From NCBI GenBank assembly GCA_963826825.1, contig CAWGYV010000009.1, forward strand, positions 44,712 to 108,711: a DNA stretch of 64,000 bases. Direction: 5' to 3'. Of this stretch, positions 57,006 to 64,000 are shown piece by piece (within the stretch, counting starts at the first letter, position 1; the number at the start of each line of letters is the position of its first letter). The translations under genes were made by a program, and so were the position numbers. The stretch is from an uncultured Acidimicrobiia bacterium (GTDB lineage: Bacteria > Actinomycetota > Acidimicrobiia > Spongiisociales > DATADW01). The notes under the pieces were generated by a model that made no database searches, was not told the origin of the DNA, and saw only the letters and a program-made list of their open reading frames with translations.

Positions 57006-58129
57006 GCCTCACCGCCCGAATGTTGAACCGGGCCACCCTTGCTCGCCAGATGCTGCTTCGTCGGGAGTCGCTCGACGTGGTCGAAGCGGTCCGCCGCATC
57101 GTGGCTTTGCAGGCTCAACACGCACCCTCGCCGTACCTCGCGCTGTGGAACCGGCTCGCCGGCTTCGACCCCGCCGACCTCGACAAGGCATTCACCGACC
57201 GCACCGTGGTCAAGGCGTCGTTGCTGCGTCTCACGCTTCATGCCGTCTGTTCGGAGGACTACCCGGAGTTTCACAACGTGATGGTTCCCAGCCTCCGTGG
57301 CTCGGTGCTGCACGACACGCGCTTCACCTCGACCGGCTTGTCGATCCCCGATGCTGACGCGCTGGTTCCCCCCCTTGCCGAGTTCACCGCCGAGCCGCGG
57401 CGTGGTGCCGAGATCGAGGATCTGCTCGAAGGCTTGGTGGGCGAACGCAAACCGCGGGTGTGGTGGGCGCTGCGCAGGTTTGCTCCTCTGCACCACGCAC
57501 CGACGGGCGGGCCATGGTCTTTTGGTCAGCGGGCCTCGTACATCTCTGCCAAAACCAAGGACGAGTCACGGGAGGAGTCCACGCAGTTGTTGGTCCTGCG
57601 CTACCTGCAGGCATTCGGCCCCGCCTCGGTGCCCGATTTCGCCCAGTTCACCATCCTGCGCCGGCCGGTGACGCAGCAGGCGCTCAAGGCGCTCGACGGC
57701 CGGGTCGTCGAGGTTGAGGGTCCCGGAGGCGTCAAGCTGCTCGATGTGCCTGGGGCACCACTCCCAGCCGAGGACACCCCTGCACCCTCACGGCTCCTCC
57801 CCATGTGGGACAACACCCTCCTCGCCTACTTTGACCGCAGCCGCGTCGTCCCCCCCGAATACCGGCCCTTGGTCATCAAGCGCAACGGCGACGTTCTCCC
57901 CACCCTGCTCATCGACGGCTATGTCGCCGGTGTCTGGCGTCCCGTCGACGGAGGCATCGAGGCGACGGCCTTCCACCGCCTCGATGACGAGGATTGGGAT
58001 GAGCTTGCCGCAGAGGCTCGGGCGCTCGTTGCGTTCCTCGCCGATAGAGACCCGAGGGTCTACAGCCGTTACGCCCACTGGTGGACCAAGGGGTTCCCCG
58101 GGGCTGAGGTGCGAGTGCTCTCGGGTTGA
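57002..58129 (+). CDS. AlkZ-like winged-helix DNA glycosylase
   Basis: LNRATLARQMLL, LQAQ (QxQ), R.TLH, LLPMWD, DG.VAG.W motifs. Confidence 0.88.
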   Translation: MSLTARMLNRATLARQMLLRRESLDVVEAVRRIVALQAQHAPSPYLALWNRLAGFDPADLDKAFTDRTVVKASLLRLTLHAVCSEDYPEFHNVMVPSLRGSVLHDTRFTSTGLSIPDADALVPPLAEFTAEPRRGAEIEDLLEGLVGERKPRVWWALRRFAPLHHAPTGGPWSFGQRASYISAKTKDESREESTQLLVLRYLQAFGPASVPDFAQFTILRRPVTQQALKALDGRVVEVEGPGGVKLLDVPGAPLPAEDTPAPSRLLPMWDNTLLAYFDRSRVVPPEYRPLVIKRNGDVLPTLLIDGYVAGVWRPVDGGIEATAFHRLDDEDWDELAAEARALVAFLADRDPRVYSRYAHWWTKGFPGAEVRVLSG

Positions 58130-58214
58130 TGCCCGGCACCGATTGCTCCGGCCGTTCCGGCATGAGGGCGCGAATTCCCTACTAGCCTCGCTGCGTCGTC
58201 AGCCCCGAGGGCCA

Positions 58215-60251
58215 GTGTCGGATCGCTATACCAATCGTGAGCTCTCCTGGCTCGACTTCAATGAGCGGGTCCTCGCGATCGCAGAGGATCCGGCCACCCC
58301 GCTGCTGGAGCGAACCAAGTTCCTCGCCATCTACTCGTCGAATTTGGACGAGTTCTTCCAGGTGAGGGTGGCGGGGCTTCTGGAGCAGCAGGCGGCGGGC
58401 GTGCGGACCGTCTCCGCGGACGGGATGTCGGCTACCGATCAACTGAAGGCCATCCGGCAACGTGTCCTCGGTCTGTCCGACCGCCAGTCCCGCTGCTTCC
58501 ACGAGTCGGTGGCTCCCGCCTTGGAGGAAGCCGGGATCGCCTTCTCCTCATACGACAGCCTCGACGACGACGACCGGAAGTATCTCGACGAGCAGTTCCG
58601 CGAACGCGTTTTCCCTGTGGTGACACCCCTGGCGGTGGACCCGGCGCACCCATTCCCTTACATCTCCAACCTCTCGCTCAACTTGGCGGTGTTCGTCCGC
58701 AACCCGCGCACCGGGGTGACCCGCTTCGCCCGGGTCAAGGTGCCCCCGATCCTCCCCCGCTTCGTGGTCATGCCCGACGGAGAGCGTTTCGTGTCGCTCG
58801 AGCAGGTGATCGCAGCCCATCTGGATGCGTTGTTCCCTGGGATGGAGATCGTCGACCATCACCCATTCAGGGTCACCCGCAACGCCGACTTCGAGGTCGA
58901 GGAAGAGGAGGCTCACGACCTGCTCGCCGCCATCGAGTCGGAGCTCACCCGAAGGCGCTTCGGCCGGGTGGTGCGGCTCGAGGTCGAGCCGGGGATCCCC
59001 GACCACGCCCTCGAGCTGCTGATCCGCGAGATGAAGGTCGGTCCCGAGGACGTGTACCAGATGGAAGGGCCGCTGGACATGGCTGGTCTGTTCTCGTTGT
59101 CAGCCCTTTCCAGACCCGACCTCAGCTGGCCGGCTTTCACCTGGGTGACCGACCCCAGGCTGGCCACGGTCGATGGCGTGCCGCCGGACGTATTCGTCGC
59201 CATCAGCAAGGGCGATCTGCTCGTACACCATCCATACGACTCCTTTTCCACCTCGGTCGAGGTTTTCCTCGCCGCAGCCGCAGCCGACCCCAACGTGCTC
59301 GCCATCAAGCAGACCCTGTACCGCACGTCCTCGGGGAGCCCGATCATGGAGGCGCTCATCGAGGCCGCCAACGAGGGCATACAGGTCGCCGTCCTCGTCG
59401 AGCTCAAGGCCCGCTTCGACGAGGAGCGGAACATCGAGTGGGCGCGCGCCTTGGAGGAGGTGGGGGTGCACGTCGTCTACGGGCTGGTCGGGCTGAAGAC
59501 CCACACCAAGACCACGCTCGTGGTGCGCGAGGAGGAGGGCGTCATCAGGCGATACGCCCACATCGGCACCGGCAACTACAACGACTCCACCGCCCGCATC
59601 TACGAGGATGTCGGGCTGTTCACCACCGACGACGACATCGGCGCCGACCTCTCCGATCTCTTCAACTTCCTCACCGGATACAGCGAGCAAAGCCACTACC
59701 GCAAGCTGCTCGTGGCCCCGGTCGAGTTGAGACAGCGGATCCTGGCGCTGATCGACCGCGAGACTTCCCGCCCAGGCGGGCACATCGTGATGAAGATGAA
59801 CGCGCTGGTGGACGCCGAGATGATCGAGGCGCTGTACAAGGCCTCCGAGAGCGGAACCCGGATAGAACTGTTCGTGCGCGGGATCTGTTGTCTCCGTCCC
59901 GGCGTGGAGGGGATGTCATCGAACATCACCGTCCGCTCGATCGTGGGCAGATATCTGGAGCACTCACGGATCTACCGCTTCGGCGCCGAACAGCCTCTCT
60001 ACTACATCGGATCGGCCGACATGATGCCCCGCAACCTCGACCGAAGAGTCGAGGCGCTGACACCGGTGGAGGACCCGGCGCTGCAGGGACGGCTCGAAGA
60101 GGTGCTCGACGTCCTCCGTGAGGATGACGAGTTGGCCTGGGAACTGAAGGCGGACGGAAGCTGGGTCAAGGTTCCCACGGTCATGGGCATCGAGACCCAC
60201 AGACGACTCCAGGAATTGGCGATGGAGAGGGCGTCGAGTCGCGATGACTGA
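58215..60251 (+). CDS. ppk1: Polyphosphate kinase 1
   Basis: NRELSWL.FN.RVL, HPFP, HHPY, ELKARFDE, GTGNY, LEHSRI motifs. Confidence 0.96.
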   Translation: MSDRYTNRELSWLDFNERVLAIAEDPATPLLERTKFLAIYSSNLDEFFQVRVAGLLEQQAAGVRTVSADGMSATDQLKAIRQRVLGLSDRQSRCFHESVAPALEEAGIAFSSYDSLDDDDRKYLDEQFRERVFPVVTPLAVDPAHPFPYISNLSLNLAVFVRNPRTGVTRFARVKVPPILPRFVVMPDGERFVSLEQVIAAHLDALFPGMEIVDHHPFRVTRNADFEVEEEEAHDLLAAIESELTRRRFGRVVRLEVEPGIPDHALELLIREMKVGPEDVYQMEGPLDMAGLFSLSALSRPDLSWPAFTWVTDPRLATVDGVPPDVFVAISKGDLLVHHPYDSFSTSVEVFLAAAAADPNVLAIKQTLYRTSSGSPIMEALIEAANEGIQVAVLVELKARFDEERNIEWARALEEVGVHVVYGLVGLKTHTKTTLVVREEEGVIRRYAHIGTGNYNDSTARIYEDVGLFTTDDDIGADLSDLFNFLTGYSEQSHYRKLLVAPVELRQRILALIDRETSRPGGHIVMKMNALVDAEMIEALYKASESGTRIELFVRGICCLRPGVEGMSSNITVRSIVGRYLEHSRIYRFGAEQPLYYIGSADMMPRNLDRRVEALTPVEDPALQGRLEEVLDVLREDDELAWELKADGSWVKVPTVMGIETHRRLQELAMERASSRDD

Positions 60252-61712
60252 GGCGAGGCGAACGCTTCGTTTCGCATTGGAGCGCGGGAAAGGATCCCGG
60301 ACCTGGGCTCGCTCGGCCTTCGGGTGGTGGCGCCCCCCGCCCCGCCTTCCCTGTTCGAGACCACCTATCACGACACCGCCGACCTCCGGCTGGCGCGCTG
60401 GGGGGCCACCCTGACCTTCCGGGCGGGGGAGGGGTGGACCGTCGAGCTACCCGACCCCGATGGCAGGCCACGAGCAGTGGGGCGCATGCTCGGCGGAGAT
60501 GGCGATGTCGTGCCTTTCGACGCCCTCAGCCTGACCCGCTCGTTTTCCCGCGGTGCACCGATCCTGCCCCTCGCCTCGCTCCGCAGCAGCCGTCGCACCT
60601 ACCGCCTGATCGACGGTGCGGGTGGTCTGTTGGCCGAACTGCACGAGGACGCCGTGATCGTCCGACGTGATGCAGGCCCAGCCTCGGGGTTCCGTGAGCT
60701 CGAGGTCCAGTTTGTCGCTGATGGCGAACGCGCCGACGAACTCGCGGCTGCACTCCGCGGTGACATCGGGGACGCCATCGGGACTCGTCTCGCCCGGGTG
60801 CTGGGCCCGAGAGCTGTCGAACCATCCGACGTCCCCGTTGTGAGTTTGGGCGACGATTCGACCGCGGCGGAATTGCTCGTTTCCGAGCTCTCGTCGGCGG
60901 TCCGTCGGTTCATCCTGTATGCGCCGATGGCGGTCGAAGGGGTGGACCCAGAAGGCGTCCACCAGGCAAGGGTCGCCGTTCGCAGGTTCCGCTCGTATCT
61001 GCAGAGCTTCCGCCCGGTGCTCGATGAGGAATGGTCCGAGGCTCTTCGTGCCGATCTCAAGCTGCTGGCCAGCATGTTCGGCGAGGTGCGCGACTCCGAT
61101 GTCCTCATCGACCGCCTAACCGGTTTGGGTGACCAGTTACCGGCAGAGGACGCATCGATGGTGGACAAGATCGTGCTGCAGCGTCTCGGCGACAGACATG
61201 TCGCCCGGGCACGCCTCATCCATTTCCTCGAACAGCCGGAGTACCTGGCGCTGCTCGACCGCATGGTCGAGGGTGCGGTTGATCCGAGGCTCCTCGACAA
61301 CGCCGGCGAGCCGGCCCTCGAGGCACTCCGACCGATGGTGGCCAAGAGGTGGCGCAAGCTGCGCAGCGCGGTGAAGGCCCTCGACGACCTGCCTGCCGAC
61401 GAGCAACTCCACAACGTCCGTCTCCGGGCGAAACGGGCGCGCTACGCCGCCGAGGCGGTGGAGCCGATGGCCGACAAGGACGCCTCCTCGTTCGCCTCCG
61501 CCGCCGCCGACCTGCAGGACGTACTCGGGTCCCACCAGGACGCCGTCGTCGGTCAGCGCTGGCTACGAGACGAGTTCCGCAGCGGGGACCCGGACCTGAG
61601 TTTTGTGGTCGGAGAGCTCGCCGGTCTCGAGCAATCGACTGCGGCGCGCACCCGCGCCGAGTGGACGGCAGCCTGGGACCGGGTCCGCAAGAGATCGAAG
61701 TGGCTCAAGTAA
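60244..61712 (+). CDS. CYTH plus CHAD domain protein, probable frameshift at ~60290
   Basis: Y.DT.DLRL and RELEV; HQARVAVRR, RD.DV, H.VR..AKR.RY, LG..QD motifs. Confidence 0.85.
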
Positions 61713-61720
61713 GAAAGACT

Positions 61721-61748
61721 CGGCGGACGGCGGACGGCGGACGGCGGC
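61721..61748. repeat. Heptamer array (CGGCGGA)x4, left arm
   Basis: Inverted relative to 62137-62164. Confidence 0.9.
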
Positions 61749-61749
61749 A

Positions 61750-62136
61750 AGAGTGGTCTCCGGTTTGAAATAGTCACTCCTCCTTGCTGGCTATCTGATG
61801 TCCTCCGGTAGTCGATGAGCAGTCCGTATCGATCGGCCTTTCATCAAACAGCTACCTAGCTGACGCCGGGCTGTCATCCTGACCTGATAAAACCCTGTCG
61901 GGTTCGAGGTCCATCGCACGTTCCTCGTCCCTTCCGCCTCCGAGAATGGGTCCGTCATCACTGGCGGACCCTTCTCGTTGGCCGGTGGCTTCGCTACAAC
62001 ACAGTTCTATCGAGCGGCCTTCGGCCACGCTCACTTGTGCTGGTCGGGCCGGCAAGCGCCCCGGCCAGGTCAATGGGGCGGTACGAGCCGCTCCCCGCCT
62101 CAGTGGTTCGTAGCCTTGGGCTTCGCCCTTTCTGGC
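61750..62136 (-). ncRNA. Structured non-coding element, candidate orphan IS110-type non-coding end (bridge-RNA-like)
   Basis: At least six stems; GACCT...AGGTC stem with internal loop; ends in AAGGAGG with no credible gene behind it; family resemblance is recalled, not searched. Confidence 0.4.
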
Positions 62137-62164
62137 TGCCGTCCGCCGTCCGCCGTTCGCCGTC
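62137..62164. repeat. Heptamer array (CGCCGTC)x4, right arm
   Basis: tgccgtc cgccgtc cgccgtt cgccgtc. Confidence 0.88.
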
Positions 62165-62184
62165 TCTGCTCGCGGACACCCCCC

Positions 62185-62236
62185 GTTCACTTCTACTAGG
62201 CCGCGACAGGCGATGCAACGTTCACTCTGCGTTCAC
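62185..62236 (+). promoter_or_regulatory. PHO box (PhoP/RegX3-type direct repeats)
   Basis: GTTCAC at 62220 and 62231 (11-nt period) plus one at 62185, upstream of pstS. Confidence 0.75.
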
Positions 62237-62345
62237 TTTCGAGCCAGGGTGCGGTCAAGACCTGTGGATACCTTGCCGACCGGCGGCCGGGCGCAGCCCG
62301 GGCGCGGCCCTCGGGCCAATGCGCGGAAAGCTGCAAGGAGCAAAG

Positions 62346-63435
62346 ATGACATTCGGGAAACAGGTCCGCCTGGTGGCAGTGCTGAGCCTCTTTGCGCTGG
62401 CCATCGCCGCCTGCGGGGGCGGGACGACCGACACAACGACCACTGGAGGGGGGACGGACACAACCGCGGCCGCCGGGGGATCTGATACGACAGCATCCGG
62501 AGCTGCCGGGAGCGTCGTCGTCTCCGGGTCATCCACGGTTGAGCCCGTCACCGCGCTGGTCGGTCAAAACTGGGGAGCGGACAACCCCGATGTGGCCATC
62601 TCGGTCGAAGGTCCCGGGACCGGCGACGGGATCGCCCGCTTCTGCAATAACGAGATCGATATCGCCGACGCCTCGCGGGCGATCGAAGAGGACGAGATCG
62701 CCCTCTGCGAGGAGGCTGGTGTCGAGTACGTCGAGCTGCTCATCGGGCTCGACGGATTGACCGTCATCACAAGCCCCAACAATGCCGAGGTCACCTGTCT
62801 CGACTTCAACGATCTGTACGCACTGGTTGGGCCGGAGTCAGAGGGTTTCGCCAACTGGTCGGATGCAAACGACCTGGCGGCCGAGCTGGGAGCCGGGCAC
62901 GCTCCCTACCCGGAGGCGCCATTGGTCATCACCGCCCCGGGCGAGGAGTCGGGCACATACGACTTCTTCGTCGAGACGGTGATCGAGCCGATCCAGGAGG
63001 AGCGAGCGCCCGAGGATCTCGACGGTGACGGCGAGAACGACTACTTCACCCGGGCCGACTACCAGGCATCGCCCAACGACAACGTCATCATCGAGGGCGT
63101 GGCCGGTAACGACACCTCGCTCGGCTGGGTTGGGTTCGCGTTCTACACGGCAAACGAGGACACAGTCACTGCGATCGAGGTCGACGGCGGCGAGGGATGC
63201 GTGGCGCCGAGTATCGAGCACGGTGGCAGACGGCAGCTACCCGATCTCCCGTCCCCTGTTCATCTATGTCAAGACCAACGACCTGGCCAGCCGGCCCGAG
63301 CTGATCTCCTTCGTCGACTTCTATCTGAGCGACGAGGGCATCAGCGCTACCTCCGAGGCGGGGTACGTCGACACCCCGGAACTGGAAGCGACTCGGACCG
63401 CCTGGGAGGACGCCAAGTCGGCAGCCGGAGGCTGA
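62346..63435 (+). CDS. pstS: Phosphate ABC substrate-binding lipoprotein, frameshift at ~63220
   Basis: Lipobox IAAC; GSSTVEP, GTGDG, ASR, SGTYDFF; YPISRPLFIY in another frame. Confidence 0.9.
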
Positions 63436-63445
63436 GAGTCCGGAT

Positions 63446-63473
63446 CGACCGGGCGGGTAGCGCCGCCCGGTCG
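63446..63473 (+). other. Intercistronic hairpin between pstS and pstC
   Basis: CGACCGGGCGG-N6-CCGCCCGGTCG. Confidence 0.6.
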
Positions 63474-63488
63474 TCCACGAGGAGTTCG

Positions 63489-64000
63489 ATGACCACAGAG
63501 CAGGACATGGCCAGGAGGTCTGAGGGGGAACCCGCGCCGACGTCGCCGCGAGGCGATCGTTCGTACCCTCTTCTTCCTGGCCGCCGCACTATCCGTCCTG
63601 GTGAGCGTCGCCATCGTGCTGTCGGTGTTGATCGATGCCGTCGAGTTCGTGCGATCGATCGACCTCAGCCAACTTTGGGCCGATGGCTGGTTTCCCCGGC
63701 GCGGCCGATTCAGCATCCCCACGATCTTCGTCGGATCGCTGATGATCACTCTGGTGGCCCTGGTCGTGGCGTTGCCCCTCGGCTTGGGCGCCGCCATCTA
63801 TCTCTCGGAGTACGCCCGCCCCGCGGTGCGGAGGACGCTCAAACCGACGCTCGAGATCCTGGCCGGGGTCCCGAGCGTGGTGCTCGGGTTCTTCGCCCTC
63901 TCCTTCATCACTCCGAACATCATGCAGGCCATTTGGGAGGACACCCAGGTGTTCAACTATGGCGCAGCCGGGATCGCCGTCGGCATCCTCATCATCCCTC
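63489..64000 (+). CDS. pstC: Phosphate ABC permease (partial; frameshift at ~63515)
   Basis: PLGLGAAIYLSEY and LEILAGVPSVV.G motifs; runs off the window. Confidence 0.9.
   Translation, partial: MTTEQDMARRSEGEPAPTSPRGDRSYPLLPGRRTIRPGERRHRAVGVDRCRRVRAIDRPQPTLGRWLVSPARPIQHPHDLRRIADDHSGGPGRGVAPRLGRRHLSLGVRPPRGAEDAQTDARDPGRGPERGARVLRPLLHHSEHHAGHLGGHPGVQLWRSRDRRRHPHHP

Follow-up and report, generated by a model that had tools for sequence, protein, structure and literature searches.

The gene-free block between the CHAD-domain gene and the pstS-like gene of an uncultured Acidimicrobiia bacterium is a patchwork of three unrelated layers, namely heptamer arrays, a single-copy non-coding segment that we call U, and an eroded copy of a dispersed four-hairpin repeat. 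We consider it probable that this block flanks the ppk-CHAD operon on its 3' side and consists of three independent layers, in which U would be a 3' UTR and terminator and the repeats would be gene-end elements of the REP or TRIT kind. The initial annotation had taken the block for a single structured RNA cassette, a view that is at odds with the independent gain and loss of the three layers across six genomes of the genus.

The window analysed here is a stretch of 64,000 nucleotides (G000:C9:44712-108711) from a genome of 3.16 Mb (G000; 66% G+C, 78% complete). The genus sample consists of six genomes, G000 to G005, G000 included, which are 72-93% complete. In the window, a 633-nt spacer runs from the CHAD stop (61712) to the pstS ATG (62346) and contains the gene-free block of ~450 bases. 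Gene context was obtained with a purpose-made, crude ORF/GC3 caller that covered 85% of the genome and missed pstS. The GTTCAC repeats ahead of pstS, which we take to be putative PHO boxes, are kept in the orthologous spacer of all six genus genomes. The features of the locus are as follows.

57714-60251, + strand: ppk (Pfam), upstream of the CHAD-domain gene
60324..61712, + strand: CHAD-domain gene (Pfam CHAD, E 2e-51), last gene of the ppk-CHAD pair
61721..61749, + strand: left heptamer array, (GGCGGAC)x3-4, G-rich in the CHAD sense; arm 61716-61752
61753..61976, + strand favoured: U, a single-copy non-coding segment, unique in the genome
61907..61977, + strand: conserved core of U (its last 71 nt), a C/U-rich stretch followed by a hairpin
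61948..61981, + strand: intrinsic-terminator-like hairpin, stem-loop at 61948-61971 followed by the tail TTCTCGTTGG
61977..62109, + strand: eroded copy of the four-hairpin repeat (85.8 bits with covariance model R1), with P1 broken and P3 and P4 shortened
62118..62128, + strand: small hairpin GGGC-TTC-GCCC, GGGCTTCGCCC, between the repeat and its array
62131..62167, + strand: right heptamer array, (GTCCGCC)x2 and one GTTCGCC, C-rich, 31 nt after the four-hairpin repeat
62185..62236, + strand: three GTTCAC PHO-box-like repeats (at 62185, 62220 and 62231), read in the sequence ahead of pstS
62346..63998, + strand: pstS-like gene (Pfam PBP_like_2, E 1.4e-21), whose frame reaches the window end

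Coding potential and folding of the block

The analysis supports the view that the block is non-coding, structured above chance and home to elements under selection. That no credible ORF lies between CHAD and pstS had been noticed at the outset and was borne out: the GC3 bias typical of the genes of this genome is absent from every ORF in the block, and a six-frame tblastn search of the block against the genome returned nothing at E <0.01 except other copies of the four-hairpin repeat. The short ORF thought to follow a strong ribosome binding site is not credible, since its GTG abuts the presumed site with zero spacing; it also runs antisense to the array and to CHAD. Decay of a former coding sequence was considered as well and rejected, as neither G001 nor G005 preserves the two minus-strand ORFs (20 and 56 aa), owing to a lost start and frameshifts.

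The stems described in the initial annotation were all found, about where it had placed them. Besides the small hairpin at 62118-62128, which is not conserved in the congeners, the following elements were read in the sequence.

62047-62066: stem GGCCGG-N8-CCGGCC
62012-62032: stem GAGCGGCC-TTCG-GGCCACGCTC
61941-61977: long hairpin
~61881-61911: GACCT...AGGTC stem
~61808-61857: GGTAG...CTACC hairpin
61777-61785: reverse complement of AAGGAGGAG

Shuffle tests gave z scores of -7.7 (+) and -7.9 (-) for the whole block, much of this excess arising because the two arrays pair with each other. For 61753-61985 alone the scores were -3.6 (+) and -2.8 (-), and for the repeat copy at 61977-62109 they were -1.9 on each strand, while an intact repeat copy reached -4.6 and -5.4. 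Folding is equally above chance on both strands; consequently, energy gives no preference for the minus strand, which had been proposed as the folding strand.

Searched against the genome, the block matches only itself over its full length. Dozens of places match the arrays alone, and some ten others align to interior positions 211-343; the 210 nt before these are unique. Rfam gave no relevant match over 61000-63000 at E up to 10, so assignment of the block to a known family, one of the outcomes initially foreseen, found no basis there.

The orthologous spacer in six genomes

The spacer is present at the orthologous site in all members of the genus sample, with a different content in each.

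G000: left array present; U present; repeat eroded; right array present
G004: left array present; U present; repeat reduced to the first arm of P1; right array present
G005: left array present; U diverged; repeat decayed; right array degenerate
G001: left array absent; last ~150 nt of U, abutting the stop; repeat complete; right array present
G002: left array absent; U absent; repeat starting 4 nt after the stop; right array present
G003: left array present; U absent; repeat tail only; right array present

As the six genomes hold differing subsets of the layers, these come and go independently. Together with the finding that only the arrays and the repeat recur in the genome, this independent variation identifies the block as a mosaic and not as one element. 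No clean empty-site allele, which had been suggested as a check, was encountered; the congeners differ by piecemeal gains and losses. An array occupies the right-array site in all six genomes, with units that differ.

The history of U is less simple. The flanking genes place G005 and G003 nearest to G000 and G004 at the greatest distance, yet the U of G000 resembles the G004 version most and the G005 version least, which simple vertical descent would not predict. Either U is ancestral and has suffered losses or it has been exchanged between lineages.

Heptamer arrays

The two arrays of the block belong to a large family. Two or more exact GGCGGAC units occur at 63 sites of the genome, and 106 arrays are counted when mismatches are allowed; widening the unit to GGMRGAC raises the number to 125, made up of 70 GGCGGAC, 33 GGCAGAC and 22 GGAAGAC types. 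The modal length is four units (42 of 106 arrays). The G-rich strand starts within 15 nt of a co-oriented stop in 23/106 arrays and within 50 nt in 28/106, and the left array, which begins 9 nt past the CHAD stop, has a placement typical of this genome. Some arrays also sit ahead of genes.

The flanking arrays are indeed inverted to each other, as first described, with 37-nt arms that are 86% complementary. Such an arrangement is recurrent: neighbouring arrays 30-1000 nt apart form seven '+-' pairs and zero '-+' pairs in the 125-array set (P = 0.008), and with a narrower array set six of the eight neighbouring pairs are '+-'. The arms, this bias and the agreement of left and right unit types at the locus in G000, G004 and G003 would fit a MITE-like non-autonomous mobile element with the arrays as terminal inverted repeats, the role of cassette brackets in which the arrays had initially been seen. 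We nevertheless regard a mobile element as very unlikely and this reading as largely refuted. No second copy of the block exists in the genome, its arms belong to an array family more than 100 strong, and no direct repeat of the kind left by target-site duplication flanks them. The interiors of the '+-' pairs are otherwise unrelated, sharing arrays only, and at least one contains a real gene, while the congeners show piecemeal gains and losses instead of clean presence or absence. Agreement of unit types is itself imperfect: it fails at the locus in G005 (agreement in three of the four genomes with both arrays) and holds in only four of the seven inverted pairs genome-wide, all of the majority type. 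Among the arrays listed for the five congeners there are at least five further '+-' pairs, and unit types agree in two of those five.

We read the inverted pairs as the result of array polarity, the AGAGAC end facing the flanking gene, and not as the ends of mobile cassettes; the two arrays of the block are inverted because arrays here lie with the same end outward. A selected long-range stem between the two arrays was also considered and is not established, given that the best duplex partner of an array is not always its cognate and that unit types match in 4/7 pairs.

A four-hairpin repeat at gene ends

The segment 61977-62109 aligns with ten further places in the genome, which together define a repeat of ~145 nt consisting of four GC-rich hairpins (P1-P4) and a GCACCCCC tail. 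Covariance model R1 finds 67 matches in the six genus genomes (14, 14, 12, 11, 11 and 5), 14 of them in G000. Nine of the other thirteen G000 copies score 126-151 bits and four score lower; the window copy, at 85.8 bits, is a worn one. Beyond the genus, matches of 49-79 bits occur in 4 of the 115 sampled genomes of the order's other genera (121-genome sample), and the repeat is patchily present in several families of an Acidimicrobiia order. Rfam recognized none of eight loci with good repeat copies at E up to 1.

The covariance analysis that had been proposed for the whole block separates its layers, the repeat covarying strongly and U not at all. In an alignment of 40 distinct repeat sequences, pairing holds in 95.9% of cells and double changes occur at 17 of the 36 pairs; with the non-genus sequences included (49 distinct sequences), these values become 95.4% and 28/36 pairs, the double changes amounting to 149 cells. 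None of 500 shuffles scored as high, and slid controls reached 35-47% paired cells and at most 16 double-change pairs. The alignments behind these counts were fitted to the structure of the model, which favours that structure.

The placement of the repeat was examined for 38 of 41 matches, three weak or partial tandem matches being omitted. In 13/38 copies the repeat 5' end lies no more than 12 nt from the stop of a co-oriented ORF, in 18/38 no more than 150 nt, and in none of the 38 does an opposite-strand ORF end less than 34 nt from the 3' end. The window copy lies 265 nt from the CHAD stop. Outside the genus the anchoring is tighter still: eight of ten copies begin no more than 2 nt from the stop of an ORF with a GC3 of 0.79-0.95, and the remaining two follow a tRNA-Ser gene and a partial tandem copy, respectively. 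No common theme was found among the genes upstream of the repeat, which include a phosphoglucomutase-type mutase, a phosphoribosyltransferase, an H+-PPase, a PLP enzyme, a hydantoinase B, a MaoC and a CHAT protein.

A C-rich (GTCYKCC)n array lies at most 260 nt downstream in 28/38 copies, mostly at 15-55 nt and always in the same orientation, and a G-rich array lies downstream of none of the 38. An array within 260 nt upstream is found for the window copy only (1/38). The right array of the block is therefore the normal partner of the four-hairpin repeat and the left array is unrelated to it. Non-genus copies have no arrays beside them. As 24 of 31 compared repeat loci fall into seven syntenic groups across species, most copies are old and retained.

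We propose that transcription of the upstream gene would extend into the repeat, which would form the mRNA end and might there terminate transcription or block 3' exonucleases, by analogy with what has been proposed for REP/BIME and TRIT elements. Hairpins and arrays might instead work as DNA, for example by binding proteins, by serving in recombination or nucleoid organization or by forming hairpins connected with replication. Of the 1727 stem cells, 1633 are Watson-Crick pairs, and the others include 15 G-U against 26 A-C in the 49-sequence set (14 against 23 in a second count), with no excess of G-U; an intact copy folds equally well on both strands, and arrays occur ahead of genes too. The lack of a + strand preference among stem mismatches means that DNA hairpins, or both strands, could be the target of selection. 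Still, a role at the DNA level appears improbable to us: the repeat has a strict polarity, its 5' end lying at stops in 13/38 genus copies and 8/10 non-genus copies and its 3' end never, and a symmetric DNA site would not need such polarity. Moreover, no REP-type Y1 transposase (PF01797, RAYT) was detected in any of the six genus genomes, which are 72-93% complete.

Segment U

U occupies the orthologous site in four of the six genus genomes and is absent from two, and is consequently dispensable. Covariance model R2, built from the four U versions, hits this locus only, in G000, G004, G001 and G005, with 153-182 bits; over the rest of a 141-genome sample of the order, scores did not exceed 28 bits. 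The core of U in G000 is 97%, 92% and 90% identical to that of G004, G001 and G005, while the adjacent third codon positions of CHAD are 64%, 68% and 83% identical. On the strength of these comparisons, the last 71 nt of U are under purifying selection.

The core ends in a hairpin of 10 pairs (7 G-C) with a 4-nt loop, followed by a weak U-tract (5 T in 8). Scanning of both strands of 61500-62450 revealed no other terminator-like site. The hairpin combines the GC-rich stem-loop and the U-rich tract of an intrinsic terminator, which is its predicted function, and it is kept in all four genomes that carry U, where the U-G wobbles of the + strand are A-C mismatches on the minus strand. We accordingly favour the + strand for U. 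Evidence from the remainder of U is equivocal: compensatory pairs number 0/34 and 0/33 on the two strands in the four sequences, folds of either strand derived from the G000 sequence are kept equally well in the relatives, and a single change in the 61808-61857 hairpin of the congener alignment favours the minus strand.

In the reading that we prefer, U would form the 3' UTR of the ppk-CHAD transcript and supply its intrinsic terminator, the strand of U and the RNA ends being deduced along with this role. U is co-oriented with the operon and, in G001, abuts the CHAD stop directly. U might further give rise to a small RNA derived from this 3' UTR, with the conserved C/U-rich stretch free for pairing. 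At the window locus, the terminator of U would do the job of the repeat, and the local repeat copy may be decaying because it is redundant behind it. The counts of G-U and A-C in the repeat and the similar folding of U on both strands do not single out the + strand, and both count against this reading.

Alternatively, U might be a small-RNA gene in its own right, encoded on one or the other strand and possibly linked to phosphate control, and not just an operon 3' UTR. U has the typical layout of trans-acting sRNAs, with a terminator-like hairpin behind a C/U-rich stretch. It lies between two phosphate-related operons, folds above chance (z -3.6 on the + strand and -2.8 on the minus strand), and its core is better conserved than the pstS promoter and leader (90-97% against 80-86% identity). 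We find such a gene rather unlikely, however: no sigma-70-like promoter was detected on either strand of the spacer, U shows no covariation and is missing from 2/6 genomes, and the promoter of a minus-strand RNA would fall in the repeat, which G004 lacks. Preservation in G001 of only the 3' part of U, set against the CHAD stop, fits read-through from the operon better. Of the first suggestion of an undescribed ncRNA at the phosphate locus, the part concerning the whole block fails with the mosaic; it could still hold for U, given its 71-nt core of 90-97% identity.

A bolder variant, which we put forward tentatively, would make the repeat a dedicated RNA domain anchored at stop codons, its shape preserved by covariation in several families of the order, and read by some factor that sets mRNA 3' ends or couples the end of translation to mRNA fate. 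The U core would then be a small regulator stemming from the polyphosphate operon's 3' UTR, next to pstS.

Relation to IS110 elements

The block had been likened to a recombinase-free bridge-RNA locus or a non-autonomous IS110 derivative. As described in the available text of Durrant et al. (2024, PMC11208160), bridge RNAs come from the non-coding end next to the recombinase gene, and each of their two internal loops holds guides of 8-9 nt. The block resembles them in being non-coding and structured, in its length of a few hundred bases and in having stems with internal loops, and the same source reports that IS110 elements target REP-like repeats. The block differs in having no adjoining DEDD/Tnp recombinase gene, no similarity to the IS110 ends of the genome, no guide-length loops and no clean empty-site allele; the loops of the named stems measure 4-7 nt, shorter than the guides, and a donor element with which they could pair is lacking.

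Genomic context points the same way. The single IS110 gene of the genome (PF01548 and PF02371) lies on another contig (C7:27531-28608), and blastn-short comparison of the block with that locus and its flanks gave words of at most 11-13 nt (E 0.58 or worse). Nine IS110 hits were found in 4/6 genus genomes, the nearest of the 67 repeat copies being 10.5 kb away, whereas G004 and G005 carry 11-12 repeat copies and no IS110 hit. Of the block, only the arrays and positions 211-343 recur, no part of it adjoins an IS110 gene, and U is single-copy and tied to its locus. An IS110 origin consequently has, in our estimation, next to no chance of being correct. Rfam returned no bridge-RNA match at the real IS110 locus of this genome either, so its silence on the block is uninformative about IS110.

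Comparison with known gene-end repeats

REP/BIME elements of Proteobacteria are dispersed GC-rich palindromes found at gene 3' ends, where they form composite mosaics, and are proposed to end or stabilise the upstream mRNA. The four-hairpin repeat is likewise dispersed, multi-copy (14 in G000, 67 in the genus), GC-rich and extragenic, on the 3' side of genes. It differs from REP/BIME in that no cognate RAYT/Y1 gene was found (0/6 genus genomes, 72-93% complete), in being mostly syntenic and not recently spread, and in its fixed polarity, with the 5' end at the stop.

A parallel within the phylum is TRIT, the Tuberculosis Rho-independent terminator motif of Mycobacterium, a single hairpin in 147 copies (Gardner et al. 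2011, PMC3152330). According to the available text of that work, TRIT is also a multi-copy hairpin motif conserved in sequence and structure within one Actinomycetota lineage, has a very narrow distance to stop codons and is palindromic enough to fold on both strands. The four-hairpin repeat shows the narrow stop-codon distance and, by analogy, is predicted to terminate transcription. Unlike TRIT as described there, it comprises four hairpins and a C-rich tail (~145 nt), has 5-14 copies per genome, is usually followed by a heptamer array and is patchy over several families.

Heptameric G-rich simple repeats are known in Xanthomonas and Nostoc (Rehm et al. 2015, PMC4692102). The arrays described here share with them, as far as the available text of that study goes, the seven-base units, the presence of more than 100 mostly non-coding arrays, the modal length of four units and the G-rich strand in sense, close behind stops. 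They differ in that GGCGGAC has GG tracts only, so that any putative quadruplex would have two tetrads, and in that some of the arrays, in the C-rich orientation, accompany the four-hairpin repeat. We found no work on such extragenic palindromic repeats in Acidimicrobiia, and our search for heptanucleotide tandem intergenic repeats in Actinobacteria found none for this lineage.

Implications

These results remove a tempting lead, as there is no orphan bridge RNA at this locus, and illustrate that layered repeats can mimic a single structured RNA cassette. They also describe, for a genus of uncultured soil Acidimicrobiia, a composite element at gene ends in which four covarying hairpins are combined with a heptamer array. 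If it is true that these repeats define mRNA 3' ends, they would aid operon annotation in thousands of metagenome-assembled genomes of a lineage poor in canonical terminators. The core of U, for its part, is a small and concrete candidate regulatory RNA at the phosphate locus.

Array-bracketed spacers

Besides the CHAD-pstS spacer of the window, six spacers of 120-620 nt in the genome under study (G000) are preceded by a G-rich heptamer array and closed off by a C-rich one:

G000:C3:157395-158063, array-bracketed spacer
G000:C3:167740-168099, array-bracketed spacer
G000:C6:136440-137107, array-bracketed spacer
G000:C17:18224-18881, array-bracketed spacer
G000:C6:6150-6340, array-bracketed spacer
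G000:C6:186109-186270, array-bracketed spacer

With the window spacer counted, the order G-rich then C-rich was observed seven times in G000 and the reverse order never. No ORF with coding-like GC3 was found in several of these six spacers, and the interiors of the six are mutually unrelated. A 75-nt stretch, 80% identical, is common to two array-bracketed spacers (G000:C4:102581-102653 and C6:136574-136646) and may represent another small repeat family.

Genomic contexts of the four-hairpin repeat

The largest syntenic group of the four-hairpin repeat includes a pair of copies in G000 and a pair arranged in the same way in its congener G003 (C10:166944 and 169630). The G000 copies are in direct orientation, 2.5 kb apart with a few genes between them:

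G000:C17:76499-76641, four-hairpin repeat
G000:C17:79133-79272, four-hairpin repeat

Elsewhere in G000, a glmS ribozyme is located a short way 3' of a phosphoglucomutase-type gene. Behind this gene come an intact copy of the four-hairpin repeat and a pair of heptamer arrays, which therefore lie between the end of that gene and the riboswitch of the next:

G000:C8:99826-99978 (L011:27-179), minus strand, glmS ribozyme (Rfam RF00234, 88.8 bits)

The stretch L071:404-1019 (on G118:C1), which is from outside the genus, has a full repeat directly 3' of a tRNA-Ser(TGA) gene, and a second tRNA-Ser(GCT) gene, ~450 nt further on, is followed by a partial copy. The L071 element terminates in CCCCTTTTT, with a clearer U-tract than the copies of the genus.

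The CHAD-pstS locus

In the window, the following features were identified:

61713-61756, region of the left heptamer array
62122-62172, region of the right heptamer array
62185-62236, three GTTCAC repeats ahead of pstS, the last two 11 nt apart
62346-63998, pstS-like frame, open for at least 551 codons, as far as the window end

The GTTCAC repeats, putative PHO boxes that resemble those of actinobacteria, are conserved in 6/6 congeners together with the leader as far as the pstS start. The PBP_like_2 match is limited to residues 49-281 of the frame, which either encodes a pstS-like protein with a long unexplained C-terminal part or continues into the next gene. Both arrays have orthologues in loci L020 and L024. 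The unit variant at this locus differs from genome to genome (GGCGGAC in G000, GGCAGAC in G004 and GGAAGRC in G003) and is the same in the left and right arrays within each genome, a match that may reflect concerted change or chance.
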